The notes beneath the pieces are model-generated. The model was not told the origin of the DNA, searched no databases, and saw only the letters and a list, made by a program, of their open reading frames with translations. From an uncultured Planctomycetaceae bacterium (GTDB taxonomy: Bacteria; Planctomycetota; Planctomycetia; Planctomycetales; Planctomycetaceae): a stretch of 64,000 bases of DNA. Below, piece after piece: positions 13,093-20,833 of the stretch. Within the stretch, counting starts at the first letter, position 1. Each line of letters opens with the position of its first letter. The stretch is from NCBI GenBank assembly GCA_963813715.1, contig CAWFAK010000007.1, forward strand, positions 512,001 to 576,000, read 5' to 3'. A program made the translations under genes and the position numbers.

Positions 13093-14049
13093 ATGCAACG
13101 ATTCCGCAACATCCTTGTGGGAATCGACCTGGCGAACGCCGATCATCTCGCAGAATTCGAGCTGACGCCGCCGAACGAAGAGGCGCTGCGGCGGGCGATC
13201 TGGCTGGCCGCCCATACCGGCGGCCGGCTGACCATCTTTGCGGCTCTTGATATCGCGGAGCCGGCCCGCACCATGCTGCAGCAAGAGCTGGAGCATACCG
13301 AAGGCAACCTCGAACGACAGGCCGGCGAGATCCTCGAACGGTTCGTCGTCCGGGCCAAGTCCCAAGGTGTCGAAGCCGTGCAGCGGCTAGGCTTCGGCAG
13401 CCCGTGGCAGGAAATCTGTCGCCAGGTGCTCGTCGAGAATCACGACCTGGTCGTGATCGGCACCCGCGATCTGGGGCAAATCAGCCGCATTTTGTTCGGC
13501 TCGACCGGCGTCAAGCTGTTGCGCTACTGCCCCTGCCCTGTCTGGATTACGCGGCCCGATCCCAACTGGGACGATCTCAACATCCTCGTCCCCAGCGATC
13601 TCAGCGACGTCAGCCAAGACGCGCTCCGCATCGCGGTCAACGGCGGCCAACTCGTCGACACGCGGCTGCACCTGCTCCATGCCGTCGAGGGCATGATCGC
13701 TCCGCCCGCCTGGTTCGGCAAAACGCAACGGAAAATGGTGAACGACTTCCTCTGTCAGGAACGAGCCGAAGCCACCCGCCGACTGCACGAACAGCTTTCG
13801 CTGACGGACTATCGCACCTTGCCCCACGGCGTGCAGGTGCATGTCGTCGACGGACCTCCCGACGAAGCCATCCTCAAGGCGATCGACGATTTTCAAATCG
13901 ACCTCGTCGTGATGGGGACGGCCGGCAACGCCGGGCTCTCAGGTTTTGTCGTCGGGACGACCGCCGAACGGCTCGTCTCCCATATGAAGTGCTCGGTCAT
14001 TGCCGTCAAACCGGCGGGATTCGAGTGCCCGGTGACCCCGGAAGCATAG
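13093..14049 (+). CDS. Tandem universal stress protein (UspE-like)
   Basis: Two USP domains: ILVGIDL...DLVVIGT..FGSTGVKLLRYCPCPVW and ILVPSDLS...DLVVMGT..VGTTAERL. Confidence 0.9.
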   Translation: MQRFRNILVGIDLANADHLAEFELTPPNEEALRRAIWLAAHTGGRLTIFAALDIAEPARTMLQQELEHTEGNLERQAGEILERFVVRAKSQGVEAVQRLGFGSPWQEICRQVLVENHDLVVIGTRDLGQISRILFGSTGVKLLRYCPCPVWITRPDPNWDDLNILVPSDLSDVSQDALRIAVNGGQLVDTRLHLLHAVEGMIAPPAWFGKTQRKMVNDFLCQERAEATRRLHEQLSLTDYRTLPHGVQVHVVDGPPDEAILKAIDDFQIDLVVMGTAGNAGLSGFVVGTTAERLVSHMKCSVIAVKPAGFECPVTPEA

Positions 14050-14618
14050 TCCGAGCGCGTAAACGGGGAGTTTTGAGCTCGACTGCCGGCCGCCATAACC
14101 CTCAGTCGCCATTAGGGATGAGGCGACACGGCTGCCGGTGATCGGCCGGCTCCAAGCATCGTGCGAAACCTCTCGGCATCCCGTGGATCGGGGCTTTCCT
14201 GATTGCCCGAAAATTCTGCAGATCTGTGAGAAGCCGCACAGAGGAAAAGGCGGCCGACTGCGATACTTCAACTGATACGCTGACGCGTATTCGGCAAACC
14301 AGACACCTTCTCGATCGCTCGGCGGGCGGTTCGTTATTCGCACGGTCTTTACTTAAACTCATACACAAAGCCGCCTGTCGGGTGATTGTTTTTGCTCGTC
14401 GCTCTAATTCGCTAATTCATTCGCCGAATAATGCGGGGAAGGCAGCTCTTGGCCTTCCCCGTCTTTTTGCGCCGGGCGAGTTTCACTGCCCGGCGATCGT
14501 GGACGGGGCGCTGCGTAGAAAACTGATCTTGGGCGTGCCGCCCGCCTGTGGCAGGATGAGAAGAGAGACTGTTTCGCGATCGCTCTGCGCGCCCACGGTC
14601 TGGAGCTGACGGCCCGCC

Positions 14619-15031
14619 GTCCCGCTGTGACAAAAGTTTCATCCCCTGCGGGGCCCTCCGGGGTGGGGATCCTTTTTTCACAGAGGGGATAAAAAGATCC
14701 CCGTGCGCGCGGGACAAGTTGTCCCGCCGGGTCCGCCTAAAAGTGGTCCCGCCGGGACGGGTCTCTCACAATTGATATAAGGGGGGTGGACCCACCGATG
14801 GGAGTCCCACCGGTCAGCGGCGATCCATCCCAGCAATCGGGACGGGATTGATTGGGATGGGACACGAAGCGATGAGGATTGCCGGGCTTGAGCAACGCGT
14901 GTCTCCGCCGCAGCGTCGCGTTCTCCGCCCTCACCCCGGCCCTCTCCGGCAGCCTGGGAGAGGGTGCAAAACGGGACGGGATCGGGACATGGGACTTGGG
15001 GATGGGACGCTGGGACCGGGACGGGATTGAT
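14619..15031 (+). repeat. GGGAY-rich non-coding element, copy A
   Basis: About 17 GGGAC/GGGAT on + and about 7 on - (counted by eye). CGGGACGGGATTGAT at 14838 and 15017. Head 14629-14710 is homologous to the reverse complement of 40119-40184. Confidence 0.75.
14928..14964. repeat. REP-like palindromic element
   Basis: CCCTCACCCCGGCCCTCTCC-GGCAGCCTG-GGAGAGGG, a widespread extragenic palindrome type, embedded in element A. Confidence 0.65.
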
Positions 15032-15085
15032 TTGGTCGGAGGTGTCACGGGCCCTGGGCGGCGATCGGCAGCTTGACGCCCCCCG

Positions 15086-15128
15086 GTCGATTTCCAAAGA
15101 TTGACGCTGTCGATTCGCAAAGATTGAC
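15086..15128 (+). promoter_or_regulatory. 20-nt direct repeat upstream of the RiPP precursor
   Basis: GTCGATTTCCAAAGATTGAC (15086-15105) and GTCGATTCGCAAAGATTGAC (15109-15128), 18/20 identical, period 23. Confidence 0.55.
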
Positions 15129-15165
15129 CGAGTCGGCTTCGACCAAAGGTCCCGAGGGTGTGGGC

Positions 15166-15672
15166 ATGCGTCTGAACGAACGGCGGGAAAGCGCGCTCAG
15201 TCGGCGCGACTTTCACCGGCTTGCGACCGCGGCCTTCGGCGGCCTGCTGGCCGGTTCGCTCGCCGGGTGTGGTGATGGCGATCGGGCGGCGGCCCCCGTT
15301 TCAGGCTCGCCCGCTGCTCCGAAAACCGGGCCGGCACCGACCACGACCGCCCCGGTGGTCAGCGCCACGACGGTGGCGCTCCACGCCTGCCGCGGCCTGA
15401 ACGAGTGCAAAGGACTGGGCAAAGACCACAAAAATGCCTGTGCCGGCCAGGGAAACTGCTTCACCGTCACCCATGACTGCGCCGAGAAGAACGATTGCAA
15501 ATCCCAAGGCGGCTGCGGCGGGACGAATGGGTTCAATGACTGCAAAGGCAAAGGCGGTTGCGGACACTTCCCGATCGAGGACGGAGTCTGGAAGAAAGCC
15601 CGCGCCCAGTTCGAGTCCCGCATGAAGGTGGCAGGCAAGAAAGTCGGTCCGGCCCCGGCGGCCGCCGGCTAA
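15166..15672 (+). CDS. Cys-rich MNIO RiPP precursor (bufferin-like) with Tat-lipoprotein signal
   Basis: SRRDFH twin-arginine motif, LAGC lipobox, Pro/Thr/Ala linker, 9 core Cys in repeats CRGLNECKG, CAGQGNC, CAEKNDCKSQGGC, NDCKGKGGC; immediately upstream of DUF692. Confidence 0.8.
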   Translation: MRLNERRESALSRRDFHRLATAAFGGLLAGSLAGCGDGDRAAAPVSGSPAAPKTGPAPTTTAPVVSATTVALHACRGLNECKGLGKDHKNACAGQGNCFTVTHDCAEKNDCKSQGGCGGTNGFNDCKGKGGCGHFPIEDGVWKKARAQFESRMKVAGKKVGPAPAAAG

Positions 15673-15696
15673 CGTTGGCGTCAGAGAGCAGGCGAA

Positions 15697-16663
15697 ATGA
15701 TCCCGTCACGACTTGGTCATCCCAATCTCGGACTCGGGCTGGGCCTGCGAACCGTCCACTATCAACACATCCTCGACCACAATCCGAGCGTGGACTGGTT
15801 CGAGGTCATCTCCGAAAACTACATGGATTCGGGCGGGCGGCCCCGCTACGTGCTCGAGCAGGTCGCCGAACGCTATCCGATCGTGATGCACGGGGTCTCG
15901 CTGTCGATCGGCAGCACCGATCCGGTCAATTTCGAGTATCTCAACAAGCTTCGCGATCTGGCCCGGGTGACCAAGGCCCTCTGGGTCTCGGATCATGTCT
16001 GCTGGACGGGAGTCGCCGGTCGCAACACGCACGACCTTTTGCCGATTCCCTACACCGAGCAGGCGCTGGCGCACGTGATCGACCGAATCCGCGTCGTGCA
16101 GGACGTGCTGGAGCGGCCGCTGGTGCTGGAGAACCCCAGCACGTACGTGACCTTCGCCGACTCGACAATGCCCGAGGCCGAATTTCTGACGCGCATGACC
16201 GAGGCGACCGGCTGCGGCCTCTTGCTCGACGTCAATAACGTTTACGTCTCCTGCTTCAACCACGACCAGGATCCCTTCGAGTTCCTCCGCTCGATCCCGC
16301 ACGAACGGGTCGTGCAATTTCATCTGGCCGGCCATACCAACTGCGTAACGCACTTGATCGACACGCATGACGGCCGGGTCATCAATCCGGTCTGGGACTT
16401 GTATCGGCTCGCTCACCAGCTGACGGGCGGCGTCTCCACCCTGCTCGAATGGGACGCGCGGATTCCCGCCGTTCCCCGTCGTGCACGCGGAAGTACTCAA
16501 AGCCCGCAACTATATGGTGTCGGAGCTCACGGGGTTCGCGGCCGACGCTGCGAGCACAGCGAGCGATGCTCAAAGCGCCGCTGAGTCGGAAGTGTTCGAG
16601 GAACTCGCTGAAGAGCCCGGCATTCCGCAGCCGGCAACCTACGCGACGGCGGAGTTCGAGTGA
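15697..16663 (+). CDS. DUF692 multinuclear non-heme iron oxidative enzyme (MNIO); frameshift near 16468
   Basis: [69 protein letters not shown]. The C-terminus continues in ORF 16481-16663. Confidence 0.93.
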
Positions 16664-16714
16664 CCCTTTGACCGCGGACGTTGAGGTCGCGATTTGATTG
16701 GCGGGCGAGTTGGA

Positions 16715-17650
16715 ATGACGGGCAACCGGCAAGAGCTGCGGCAACTCGCCCAGATTCAGCGTTGGCTGCAAGCCGTCATTACGCATCCCGACGGCGTCGA
16801 AGCGGGAATGGCATCGGACGCGGCGCAGTCCGAGATCGATATCTCGGCCGATCGCGTCGAAGAAGTCATCGATCGTTCGAAACGGCGGACCAGCGTCGAG
16901 CGGCTGGAAATCTACGCGAACGCCTACTACGCGCGGCTGCTGGAATGCTTGCGCGATGAATATCCCGCCCTGCTGCATGCGGCGGGCGAGGAAGTCTTTG
17001 ACGGGCTGGCCTTTGGCTATCTGCAGGCGTATCCGTCGCAGAGCTACACGCTGGGCGAATTGAGCCGGCGATTCGCCCAATACTTAGAGGAGACGCGGCC
17101 GACCGACGAAGACGAGGCGGGCGCGGGCCCGTCGTGGCCCGAGTTTCTGATCGACCTGGTCCGTCTCGAACGCTGCTATAGCGACGTCTTTGACGGACCG
17201 GGCGCCGAACGCATGTCGCTGCTCGACGCGGCCGCACTCAAGGACCTTTCACCCGAAGCCTGGATGCAGGCGCGCCTCGTCACCGTCCCCTGCCTGCGGC
17301 TGTTGTCGTTGCGATTCCCGGTCCACGAGTACGCGACGGCCGTCCGCGAGAAAACAGATCCCGATCTGCCGGAACCGACGCCGACCTGGCTGGCGGTGAG
17401 CCGGATCAATTACGTGGTCCGCCGCTGGACGCTCAGCCCGGTGCAGTTCGAATTGCTGGCGGCACTGATCGAAGGACAAAGCGTCGGCGCGGCCATCGAG
17501 CGAGCCGCCATACTCGCGGTCGAATCGGGCGAAAGCGTCGAAGGACTCGCTGCCAGTCTGCGCGACTGGTTCGCCGAGTGGTCGTCGGCCGGATTCTTTC
17601 AGGCGGTCGAGCTGCCCGGCTCACGCGAAGGTGAATCCTCGATTAAGTAG
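16715..17650 (+). CDS. DUF2063-type MNIO partner protein (HvfC/BufC-like)
   Basis: QRWLQAVITHP, ERLEIYANAYYARLLECLRDEYPAL, YLQAYPSQSYTLGEL, DLVRLE; directly follows DUF692. Confidence 0.88.
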   Translation: MTGNRQELRQLAQIQRWLQAVITHPDGVEAGMASDAAQSEIDISADRVEEVIDRSKRRTSVERLEIYANAYYARLLECLRDEYPALLHAAGEEVFDGLAFGYLQAYPSQSYTLGELSRRFAQYLEETRPTDEDEAGAGPSWPEFLIDLVRLERCYSDVFDGPGAERMSLLDAAALKDLSPEAWMQARLVTVPCLRLLSLRFPVHEYATAVREKTDPDLPEPTPTWLAVSRINYVVRRWTLSPVQFELLAALIEGQSVGAAIERAAILAVESGESVEGLAASLRDWFAEWSSAGFFQAVELPGSREGESSIK

Positions 17651-17741
17651 CGTCTCCGCTCGTTGCTCGCCCGACCTCCGGCCGACATACTGCGACGAGC
17701 CCATCTCTTCGCACAACAATTCGCCCGCTGGAGTGCCGCCA

Positions 17742-18795
17742 ATGTCCAACAAATTGTCGCTGTTCAACAAGTCGTTGTCTCTCACGTGTCTGGGGATTTG
17801 TCTCCTCGTTGCCCTGCCGGCCCGCTCGGCCGACGGTCCGGGGCCGTTCGAGGTCGCGGAGACGATCCACATCGGCGGCAAAGGCGGGTTCGACTATGTG
17901 ACGGTCGATTCGCAGGGCAAGCGGCTCTACATCCCGCGGGGCACGCACACCCAGATCCTTGACCTGACCACTGGCAAACTCGTCGGCGACATTCCTGGGC
18001 AGCAGGCCAATCACGGCGTCGCGCTGAACAGGCAGGTCGGTCGCGGCTTCATCTCCGATGGGCCGGGCTATGTCGTGATCTTCGATTTGAAGACAAACGC
18101 TGTGCTGGGCAAGGTGCAGGTCGCTCGCGGAGCCGACGGGATTATCAACGATCGGGGCAGCAAGACGCATCTTCGTCGCGTGCGGGTCGTCGGGCAGCCT
18201 GACGCCGATTCCCATCGATGTCGATCCGACCAACGGCAAAGCCGATCCGGCGATCGAGCTGGGCGGTAAACCCGAATATCTGGCGTGCGACGGCCAGGGA
18301 CGAGTCTTCGTGAACCTCGAGGACAAGGACCAAGTGGCCGTCGTTGACTCGAAGGCCCTCAAAGTCCTCGACAAGTGGTCGATCGCTCCGGGTGGAACGC
18401 CGGTGGGGATGCAGATCGATCCGGAACATCACCGCTTGTTCGTCGGTTGTCGAGAACCGCAAAAGCTGATCATTCTCAACACCGAAGACGGTCACGTGCT
18501 CGGCGATTTGCCGATCGGCGTCGGCTGTGATGCCGTGAAGGCCGATCAGGGCGACATCTTCGCCAGTTGCCGCGATGGCAGCTTGACCGTGGGGCGCGAG
18601 ACTTCGCCCGGCAAGTTCGAGGTTTTGCAGACCGTGAAAACACGACCGGGCGCCAAAACCATGGCCCTCGACCACGCCACCCACAGCATTTACCTGCCGA
18701 CTGCCGAGTTCGGGGAAGAAACCGACCGCCGCGGCCGACGGAAAGCCAAGCCCGACAGCTTTATGATCGTGGTCGTCCGCCCCGTGCAAAAATAG
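17742..18795 (+). CDS. Exported YncE/YVTN-like beta-propeller protein (frameshift near 18165)
   Basis: Signal peptide; GGKGGFDYVTVD..RLYIPRG, HGVAL, GFISDG, LGGKPE, VFVNLED, RLFVGCR, GAKTMALD. Confidence 0.85.
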
Positions 18796-19890: not shown

Positions 19891-20782
19891 TCAATCGATA
19901 TAGCGTCGCGTAATCTCGCCGTAGGCGTCGACACGGCGGTCCCGGAGGAAGGGCCAGTGCGTCCGCGCGAAGTCGAGCTGGCCCAGGTCGACGGGCACGA
20001 CGTGCGTCGCCGTCTGATCGACGGGCCCGCGCCACAGCACTTCGCCGCTCGGATCGGCGACAAAGCTCTGTCCCCAGAATTCGATGCCGTCGCCGGCAGC
20101 TCGCCGGATCCTTCTCCAAACCGGTGCGGTTGACGCTGACAACGAAGCAGCCGTTGGCGACCGCGTGCGAGCGCTGGATCAGCTCCCAGCTCTGGTGCTG
20201 ACGCCGGCCGTACTGGGCCTTCTCGGACGGGTGCCAGCCAATGGCGGTCGGATAGAAGAGGATGTCCGCCCCGCGGAGGGCCGTCAGCCGTGCCGCTTCC
20301 GGATACCACTGGTCCCAGCAGATCAACACGCCGAGCTTGGCGAACCGCGTCGGAAAGACCTGGAACCCGAGATCGCCCGGCGTGAAATAGAACTTCTCGT
20401 AGAAGAGCGGATCGTCGGGAATGTGCATCTTGCGATACTTGCCGACGAACGAGCCGTCGGCGTCGATTACGGCGGCCGTGTTGTGATAGAGCCCTTCGGC
20501 CCGCTTCTCGAACAGCCCGGCGACGATCGCCACGCCCAGTTCCCGGGCCACCCGGCCGAGCTGCTCGGTCGTCGGACCGGGGATCGGCTCGGCCAGGGCG
20601 AAAAACGCGTGGTCTTCCCGCTGGCAGAAATAAGTCGACGTGAAGAGCTCGGGGAGGCAGACGACCTGCGCCCCAGCCGCAGCGGCCACCCGAATCTGGG
20701 CGACGGCATGCGCCAGGTTCGCGGCCGGATCGGTCCCGCAGCGAAGTTGAACCAGGCCGATCGAGACGGTTTTGGCGGACAT
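19891..20782 (-). CDS. aguB: N-carbamoylputrescine amidohydrolase (nitrilase family; frameshift near 20100)
   Basis: CLPELF, YRKMHIPDDPLFYEKFYFTPGD, LICWDQWYPE, YPTAIGW, FWGQSF, WPFLRDRR. Confidence 0.9.
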
Positions 20783-20833
20783 TGTTGCGGGACCGGTTGT
20801 CTTTGGAACCGTCGTGGTCCCTTGCACGAGCGC

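Follow-up and report, generated by a model that had tools for sequence, protein, structure and literature searches.

How does a peptide that carries an export signal remain in the cytoplasm long enough to be modified there? The question is raised by a three-gene locus in a 64,000-nucleotide stretch of DNA from an uncultured Planctomycetaceae bacterium (assembly GCA_963813715.1, contig CAWFAK010000007.1, positions 512,001 to 576,000), a stretch that is referred to throughout as the window. Three close-set genes on the + strand, at 15166-17650, encode a Cys-rich precursor, an enzyme of the MNIO (DUF692) family and a partner protein with a DUF2063 domain, in that order. A sequence-only reading of the window had proposed that these genes form one operon for a peptide made on the ribosome and modified after translation (RiPP), with a precursor exported by twin-arginine translocation (Tat) and anchored by lipid; the positions of all three genes hold, with gaps of 24 nt between precursor and MNIO and 51 nt between MNIO and partner. 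We consider it likely that the locus is a bufABC-type RiPP operon (bufferin or captophorin, Cys-Lys group) whose product is a Tat-exported, lipid-anchored, modified metal-binding domain, and that the frameshift that interrupts the MNIO gene is an assembly error. No new chemistry is implied, and in other respects the operon is typical of a class already known.

The two downstream genes connect the locus to that class. The first 258 residues of the MNIO, which precede the frameshift, match PF05114 with an E value of 1.3e-104 and score 351.1 bits on the BufB equivalog NF050167 (cut-off 310), in agreement with the earlier assignment to an MNIO RiPP operon of bufferin type. The cut-offs of the HvfB, ApyH, MbnB and ChrH equivalogs are reached by none of its scores (249 vs 360 bits for HvfB), and among solved structures the Histophilus DUF692 protein 3bww is nearest to it (E 2.9e-43). 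The partner scores 66.1 bits on PF09836 (DUF2063; cut-off 27.2), and no solved relative of it was found by sequence. Read from their translations, the MNIO has no signal-like sequence at its N terminus and the partner has no signal peptide.

The precursor was followed through two samples of relatives. Among 1097 candidates from a word-seeded search, 563 homologue clusters reached E ≤ 0.001; the best 120 of these 563, together with the window protein, form the 121 sequences counted below; a species-level scan, with one genome per species, returned 405 encoded relatives among 441 pattern matches, and the best 80 of these 405 form the 80 loci counted below. We aligned full-length precursors (alignment A1) and precursor cores (A3), as well as ten CKG-type precursors (A6). 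Each precursor feature that had been read from the window, namely SRRDFH, LAGC, a Pro/Thr linker, nine Cys and VWKKARAQFESRM, is found in its place, and their recurrence argues against chance: the RRxF motif is present in 120 of the 121 sequences, with the sole exception truncated at its N terminus, nine core Cys are present in 118 of the 121, and a Cys stands exactly 22 residues past the first Arg in 117 of the 120 sequences that bear the Arg pair. In A1, M1 is invariant and the n-region that follows is variable (mean entropy 2.60 bits), as is the linker at residues 36-71, which differs in length from member to member and is poorly conserved (2.65 bits). These are the least conserved parts of the protein, with values of about 2.6 on either side of signal residues 12-35, which have a mean entropy of 1.00 bit, compared with 0.95 bits for the core.

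The nine Cys of the core lie between residues 75 and 132, with the lipobox Cys35 additional to them, in the contexts HxCRGLNxCKG, NxCAGxGxC, HxCxxxNxCK, GGCG and NxCKGxGGC, and are presumed to be both MNIO target sites and metal ligands. The precursor falls in no Pfam family. The match to the NCBIfam BufA2 model is weak in all 28 aligned members (best E 3.1e-7, HMM positions ~35-62), while the core profile A3 aligns with the ten CKG-type Buf2-like precursors of A6 over 72 columns in hhalign (99.9%, E 3.8e-31); those ten score 25.5-54 bits on the BufA2 model themselves, with none reaching its cut-off of 60. The core is followed by a C-terminal segment made up of VWKKARAQFESRM at residues 141-153 and a GK..GPAPA tail, in which W142, R146, F149, E150 and M153 are conserved, and in the hhalign alignment this segment has no counterpart in the CKG-type Buf2-like relatives. 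Because of the match between A3 and A6, the weak BufA2 score and the unmatched C-terminal segment, the core is placed by homology in the Buf2/Cys-Lys superfamily, within which its nine Cys and additional C-terminal segment mark the protein as a subfamily of its own. In the ESM Atlas, the precursor leads to Planctomycetota clusters at 0.96, and its other leads are low-scoring, including a HiPIP cluster at 0.77.

The N terminus of the precursor has the layout of a Tat signal that ends in a lipobox, with an Ala/Gly-rich h-region between SRRDFH and LAGC (the whole signal spans 15199..15270 on the + strand). Residues 1-45 of the window protein score 18.6 bits on the Tat model TIGR01409, against a cut-off of 16.7; 23 of the 28 aligned members match this model at E ≤ 10, and six of 15 members scanned singly exceed the cut-off. 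Residues R13, R14, F16, G34 and C35 are invariant in A1, D15, H17 and L19 are conserved at 81-94%, and A22, A23, G26 and G30 are nearly invariant; a first version of the lipobox pattern had skipped 16 sequences with AFGC, TFGC or WLGC at this site. The hydropathy of the h-region, taken as the most hydrophobic 15-residue window after the Arg pair, averages 1.70 (sd 0.16, n=120), compared with 1.82-2.31 in five homologous precursors whose N-termini are of plain Sec type. When the core by itself was used in an exhaustive profile search, 427 representatives (50% identity) were found at E ≤ 0.001 and 173 at E ≤ 1e-10, and the best 150 representatives were surveyed for their signals. Setting aside 57 of them (the N terminus was too short in 23 and carried a long extension in 13, and the core pattern failed in 21) leaves 93 that are assessable, 77 of which combine the Arg pair with an uncharged h-region, 47 of these also having a lipobox-like Cys; another 11 have a hydrophobic N terminus without the Arg pair, some of them truncated, and five have neither. 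Two family members are named by NCBI as twin-arginine signal proteins. The genome encodes Tat machinery, with TatA at 50 bits and TatC at 175 bits plus a second piece, as well as the lipoprotein enzymes Lgt, in two copies, and LspA. Judged from these sequence features, the precursor signal is quite probably of the Tat/signal peptidase II (SPII) type, and the claim of a Tat signal with a lipobox is upheld.

Other signals in the class vary. Among further CKG-type precursors of the phylum, some signals are of RRDF type and others of Sec type. Data set S2 of PMC13097082, which lists captophorin precursors from RefSeq, holds a few DUF2282- and EGKCG-type precursors, apparently of Pseudomonadota, with twin-arginine-like N-termini such as TRRDFLKLAG and DRRSFNLAL; counted over the sequences of that data set, RRDF occurs 65 times, RRSF 31, RRNF 14, RRTF 9, RRQF 2 and RREF once, not all of them inside signals. 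From these sequences, Tat-type signals may be a scattered minority across the whole class. In 10 of the 28 aligned members, the signal region gave a match to model NF058595 ('invert_tail') far under its cut-off. A regular-expression scan of the genome for Tat-like lipoprotein signals skipped the window's own precursor, and its counts (124 Tat-like, seven with a lipobox) were left unused.

An alternative that retains the same operon and the same chemistry is export by Sec with SPII processing, in which case the arginines would be the positive n-region of an ordinary lipoprotein signal. The bufferin class is described as Sec-dependent in the cited portions of PMC12452194, where precursors were chosen with 'a predicted Sec signal peptide' using SignalP 6, and Sec export has been demonstrated for Caulobacter bufferin 1 (PMC11626156). 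In addition, a homologous core follows a plain Sec-type N terminus in five of the 93 assessable representatives, other Buf2-like precursors of the phylum (L087-L090) bear Sec signals, and the TIGR01409 score of the window protein lies barely above the cut-off. A Sec n-region, however, would allow Lys and Arg to be exchanged, whereas the Arg pair and the Phe two residues on are invariant, and the conservation extends to D15, H17 and L19. The h-region is Ala/Gly-rich and less hydrophobic than that of the Sec-type relatives, and the Tat model is matched across most of the aligned members, so that Sec export of this precursor is judged unlikely.

A second question is whether the operon is intact. 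The reading frame of the MNIO is lost near 16465-16472, and the gene continues in a different frame to a stop at 16663. The indel near 16468 that the sequence-only reading had noticed is real in the window: in a DNA alignment the window carries one surplus base near 16465-16472 relative to three related loci, and all four contigs from public runs that cover 16465-16468 (from X2, X3 and, with two contigs, X4) are without one base there. Dropping one C of the CCC run at 16465-16467 is the simplest correction and restores the reading frame of the relatives. The covering contigs come from relatives ~90-97% identical to the window, and none of the pieces from run X1, which are at least 99% identical to it, spans 16465. 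The restored tail, at window positions 16481-16663, has the pattern (I/V)P(H/Q)P..(V/I).A(E/D)(V/F)E, which is C-terminal in the MNIOs of 50 loci; a variable acidic linker precedes it, and the BufB model ends short of it. Downstream of the frameshift, a window-only stretch of ~55 nt separates the MNIO stop from the partner start. Related loci and contigs join 16650/16657 to 16706/16713, with the MNIO stop and partner start overlapping (ATGA), and in most related loci the two genes overlap or nearly do so. At its end the inserted stretch nearly repeats the sequence before it, so a small duplication or an artefact of assembly may have produced it.

Other genes of the assembly are interrupted in a similar manner. 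The first gene after the operon, which encodes a secreted protein without a Pfam family (17742-18795), and an amidase-like gene (19891-20827) are each two open reading frames (ORFs) in the window and a single ORF in L004. TatC is matched in two pieces (G000:C15:41971-42890), and the genome is 82.6% complete at only 18 contigs. Because the related contigs are without the extra base, the neighbours and TatC are split alike and completeness is low at 18 contigs, the MNIO frameshift is very likely an assembly indel and not decay of the operon. A decaying pseudo-operon in this strain, in which the +1 frameshift removes the end of the MNIO fold and its tail, the 55-nt insertion uncouples the partner and no modified product is made, is quite unlikely. 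Such decay would account for an extra base and an insertion that are found in none of the related loci and contigs, and the tail to be lost is one that is conserved in 50 loci; yet at least two neighbouring genes are interrupted likewise and intact in L004, and the pattern, with the divided TatC and the low completeness, suits assembly-wide indel errors better than the decay of one operon. No stop codon interrupts the rest of the three genes.

How general the arrangement is can be judged from its relatives. By their titles, all but one of the best 80 of the 405 loci belong to Planctomycetota (among them Planctomycetaceae, Planctomicrobium, Schlesneria, Gimesia, Bremerella, Pirellula and Blastopirellula), with the exception being a metagenome-assembled genome labelled Deltaproteobacteria. 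When the phylum was sampled evenly, matches at 1e-5 came from 18 of 151 genomes, and strong full-length matches in that sample are confined to the window's own family, where they occur in the window genome (G000) and three of six others. A search of 151 genomes of the phylum with NF050166 missed its Caulobacter control, a sign of poor sensitivity, and was used as a source of example loci only. On this sequence evidence, the precursor family appears to be large, experimentally uncharacterised and almost restricted to Planctomycetota. The earlier suggestion of an uncharacterised Planctomycete subclass therefore stands as regards experiment and distribution, and fails as regards novelty, with members already present in Data set S2 of PMC13097082.

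Gene order is kept to a similar extent. Across these Planctomycetota-dominated loci, a synteny comparison, as the sequence-only reading had envisaged, shows that in 52 of the 80 loci the precursor has the MNIO immediately downstream, with the partner next in 42; beyond the five closest loci, conservation covers the precursor, the MNIO and the partner only. Ten loci have an MNIO without a detected partner, two of which end too early to judge. A precursor and MNIO without a detectable DUF2063 partner downstream are seen in L018, L020, L021, L033, L054, L069, L071 and L082, and in L018, L021 and L069 a thioredoxin-like gene lies upstream on the opposite strand.

Where the precursor stands by itself, an enzyme is found elsewhere in the genome. 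Each of five tested genomes with an unlinked precursor holds one BufB-like MNIO elsewhere, and in the two of those genomes that were inspected this MNIO has no precursor in front of it. The window genome encodes one good MNIO and one weak one, together with two unlinked paralogous precursors that have SRREF/SRRDF motifs and no lipobox. One enzyme pair probably serves several precursors, including these two paralogues. The paralogues, at L084 1357-1791 (G000:C7:~39.6 kb) and L085 1465-2049 (G000:C8:~551.6 kb), have signals with signal-peptidase-I-like ends, and the one in L084 is divergent from an adjoining gene for a BlaI/CopY-family (Penicillinase_R) repressor. The second, weak MNIO-like gene (L002, G000:C12:~443 kb) scores 43.9 bits on PF05114 over model positions 115-232 and is apparently broken, being split over two overlapping frames. 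That the Cys-rich protein is not, or not only, an MNIO substrate and works unmodified as a disulfide-rich or directly metal-binding Tat lipoprotein with a loose MNIO linkage is highly improbable, since the loci with no adjacent MNIO, the two unlinked paralogues and the low-scoring HiPIP lead that would speak for it are set against a BufB-like MNIO elsewhere in all five tested genomes, a precursor-MNIO order kept in 52 of 80 loci, a core homologous to Buf2-like precursors of known type and the many stand-alone bufferin precursor genes already published (PMC12452194).

Several observations weigh against a Tat-exported, enzymatically modified product of an intact bufABC-type operon. A comparison with bufferin precursor families, which had been proposed earlier, bears out the homology of the core and not the family assignment, as the precursor scores 23.9 bits on the BufA2 equivalog against the cut-off of 60, and its nine core Cys differ from the six or twelve of the BUF_6/12Cys family. 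The partner fails the NCBIfam HvfC equivalog, at 55 bits against a cut-off of 142, and at 26.8 bits its match to PF22106 (NGO1945_C) falls just short of the cut-off of 27. For the full-length window protein, TIGR01409 gave no row owing to HMMER filters, and the match was obtained with residues 1-45 alone. As for linkage, the precursor is not followed by an MNIO in 28 of the 80 loci; four of these 28 end within ~700 bases of the precursor. Finally, the relatives that supplied the contigs without the extra base may be other strains, a real frameshift in the window strain keeps some probability, and the ~55-nt insertion does uncouple the MNIO and partner genes in the window.

In the route that we favor, which combines Tat export with bufferin-type modification, the precursor would be made in the cytoplasm, where the MNIO and the partner of DUF2063/RiPP recognition element (RRE) type, both without signal peptides, would oxidise several of the nine core Cys. 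By analogy with Buf1, Buf2, oxazolin and the captophorins, the products would be 5-thiooxazoles, and the remaining Cys may become disulfide-bonded after export. Export after translation would use the twin-arginine signal and the Tat pathway, as the sequence of the signal suggests, upon which Cys35 would be lipidated by Lgt and the signal cleaved by LspA, with the modified domain then tethered at a membrane by a flexible linker of ~36 residues. Analogy also suggests that the product most likely buffers copper or another soft metal. Certain Tat substrates are matured in the cytoplasm under signal-binding chaperones of the TorD, DmsD and NapD type and are then exported post-translationally, and Tat-dependent lipoproteins, with a twin-arginine signal ending in a lipobox, exist in actinomycetes and haloarchaea. 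A chaperone role of this kind for the DUF2063 partner is put forward here as a hypothesis.

This hypothesis can be extended such that the twin-arginine signal doubles as the RiPP leader, the DUF2063/RRE partner masks it until the MNIO has finished, and Tat then exports the modified, folded and perhaps metal-loaded domain as a lipid-anchored metallophore. A double role as leader would fit a signal (residues 12-35) that is as conserved as the core, a degree of conservation for which export alone offers no obvious need. We nevertheless regard the extension as doubtful. The retention of the precursor has been raised for the class as a whole: the authors of PMC12452194, in the portions cited here, name as an open problem that a precursor with an export signal must stay cytoplasmic until it is modified, propose speculatively that the Sec signal stays hidden behind the partner while modification proceeds, and refer to preliminary data in which the signal forms part of the recognition sequence.

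The closest described system is bufferin 2 of Caulobacter vibrioides, which is encoded by bufA2-bufB2-bufC2 and belongs to the BUF_6/12Cys family (PMC11626156). Its four central Cys carry a change of -4 Da and its outer two form a disulfide, and Buf operons are copper-induced and copper-protective (PMC11626156). As far as the cited portions of that work describe it, the window operon resembles this system in the order of precursor, MNIO and DUF2063 partner, in having no DoxX gene, in an MNIO that exceeds the BufB cut-off, in a Cys-Lys core that is related by profile via CKG-type intermediates, and in an N-terminal export signal in place of a classical leader. In contrast, bufferin 2 has a Sec/signal peptidase I signal and six core Cys, whereas the window precursor has a twin-arginine signal with a lipobox and nine core Cys; the ~36-residue Pro/Thr-rich tether, the extra C-terminal segment and the MNIO tail beyond the model are further points in which the window operon differs from bufferin 2. 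Oxazolin, the product of HvfABC(+DoxX) in Haemophilus and relatives, likewise pairs an MNIO and a DUF2063 partner with a Cys-rich, signal-bearing, copper-binding precursor (PMC11252979, PMC12452194), but its precursors have EGKCG (Lys-Cys) repeats and its clusters usually include a DoxX gene, unlike the window. Predicted lipoprotein bufferins and the ChrH/DybH family share cytoplasmic MNIO modification followed by the lipoprotein (SPII) pathway (PMC12452194, PMC13056109); the published accounts describe Sec-dependent export, and DybH belongs to another MNIO subfamily with other chemistry.

How much of this is already in print differs from part to part. Data set S2 of PMC13097082 contains 46 sequences with the string CRGLN, and the examples shown, such as WP_105354423.1, share with the window precursor its RRDF signal, lipobox, core and C-terminal segment. 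Because of these CRGLN sequences, the family is already catalogued as putative Cys-Lys captophorin precursors, though it is not discussed; the study, as presented in its cited portions, centers on Pseudomonadota and on no member of the window subfamily. Predicted lipoprotein bufferins are discussed, and for the DybH family the lipidation of MNIO RiPPs has been demonstrated (PMC13056109), while ~16% of Buf2 precursors are predicted lipoproteins (PMC12452194). The lipid anchor proposed from the window is thus backed by a conserved lipobox and is not novel. Many stand-alone bufferin precursor genes have been reported, with shared enzymes suggested, and a genome table counts proteins flagged by the Buf_6-12Cys HMM, which lie beside an MNIO in Planctopirus limnophila, whereas Pirellula staleyi has an unlinked one; these proteins may or may not fall in the window subfamily (PMC12452194). 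None of five NCBI accessions of family members occurs in the supplement of PMC12452194, which carries little weight, as its sheets hold representative figure nodes and a partial genome table. The terms 'Tat' and 'twin-arginine' are absent from the main texts of PMC12452194, PMC13056109 and PMC13097082 (PDF supplements lie outside this search), as are 'signal peptide' and 'lipoprotein' from the main text of PMC13097082. A full-text literature search for twin-arginine together with MNIO, and for bufferins together with Tat, returned only an unrelated paper and two papers on a copper channel. Only the Tat route appears to be undescribed, with predicted lipoprotein bufferins and family members already in print.

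The features of the locus are collected in Table 1.

Table 1. Coordinates of the operon, its parts and the adjoining upstream region in the window
Feature	Position	Strand	Basis
bufA-like precursor gene, 168 aa: signal, linker, 9-Cys core, C-terminal segment	15166..15672	+	Translation; homologue clusters
Twin-arginine motif SRRDFH (residues 12-17)	15199-15216	+	TIGR01409, A1
Lipobox LAGC (residues 32-35), Cys35 the predicted lipidation site	15259-15270	+	A1, spacing
Pro/Ala/Thr/Ser/Gly-rich linker (residues 36-71), presumed flexible tether	15271..15378	+	A1, entropy
Cys-rich core (residues 72-138)	15379..15579	+	A3, hhalign
Conserved C-terminal segment	15580..15672	+	A1, A3; hhalign alignment stops before the segment
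bufB-like MNIO (DUF692) gene, interrupted by one extra base	15697..16663	+	PF05114, NF050167
Window-only ~55 nt between MNIO stop and partner start	16651..16712	+	DNA alignment; contigs of three runs skip 55 bases
bufC-like partner: DUF2063 N-terminal and NGO1945_C-like (RRE-type) C-terminal domain	16715..17650	+	PF09836, PF22106
Candidate promoter/operator region	15066..15135	+	30-100 nt upstream of precursor ATG; function inferred

Upstream of the precursor, a block GCTTGACGC..CGATTTCCAAAGATT is conserved across five related loci in a DNA alignment of the window with L003, L004, L005 and L007. Tandem Repeats Finder reports a 23-nt tandem repeat of 2.3 copies at 15082-15135, and part of the conserved block is tandemly repeated in the window and in L003. 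A promoter scan of the upstream region gave no match to the sigma-70 consensus, and Rfam gave nothing across 13800-17900 beyond one sub-threshold miRNA match. A non-coding region of ~1.1 kb separates a tandem-Usp gene (13093-14049) from the precursor gene and includes a G-rich stretch with repeated GGGAC units at 14964-15030. The operon of a ~95%-identical relative is tiled by contigs from a rhizosphere metatranscriptome library, a weak hint at expression in that relative, as such libraries can contain DNA.

The absence of a DoxX gene, which the sequence-only reading had remarked upon, is correct for the locus and is not an oddity, since this gene is common yet dispensable in bufferin-type clusters and the Caulobacter buf2 cluster is also without DoxX in the account given by PMC11626156. 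No DoxX gene is found in the window, with the three matches of the genome lying elsewhere, and none occurs among 115 flanking ORFs of 28 related loci (115 kept of 215, after ORFs under 100 aa and those overlapping core genes were dropped). A different association with DoxX is seen in proteins of ~360-410 aa (P0150, P0164 and P0172, with P0167 and P0176 by eye), in which an N-terminal DoxX/HvfX-like membrane domain, scoring 42.6-60.8 bits under a cut-off of 80, is fused to a C-terminal copy of the precursor's bufferin-type Cys-rich core.

Few RiPP classes are as numerous as bufferins and captophorins, and the relatives of the window precursor make up a large natural group, encoded in 405 species-representative genomes, in which a twin-arginine signal stands in place of the Sec signal. 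Because Tat export is strictly post-translational, this group would offer a ready comparison for the question of how precursors with an export signal are retained in the cytoplasm. A further prediction from it is that Planctomycetota, whose metal homeostasis has received little study, make copper-binding peptides tethered to a membrane. If the signal does double as a leader, the timing of export would be built into the choice of pathway.

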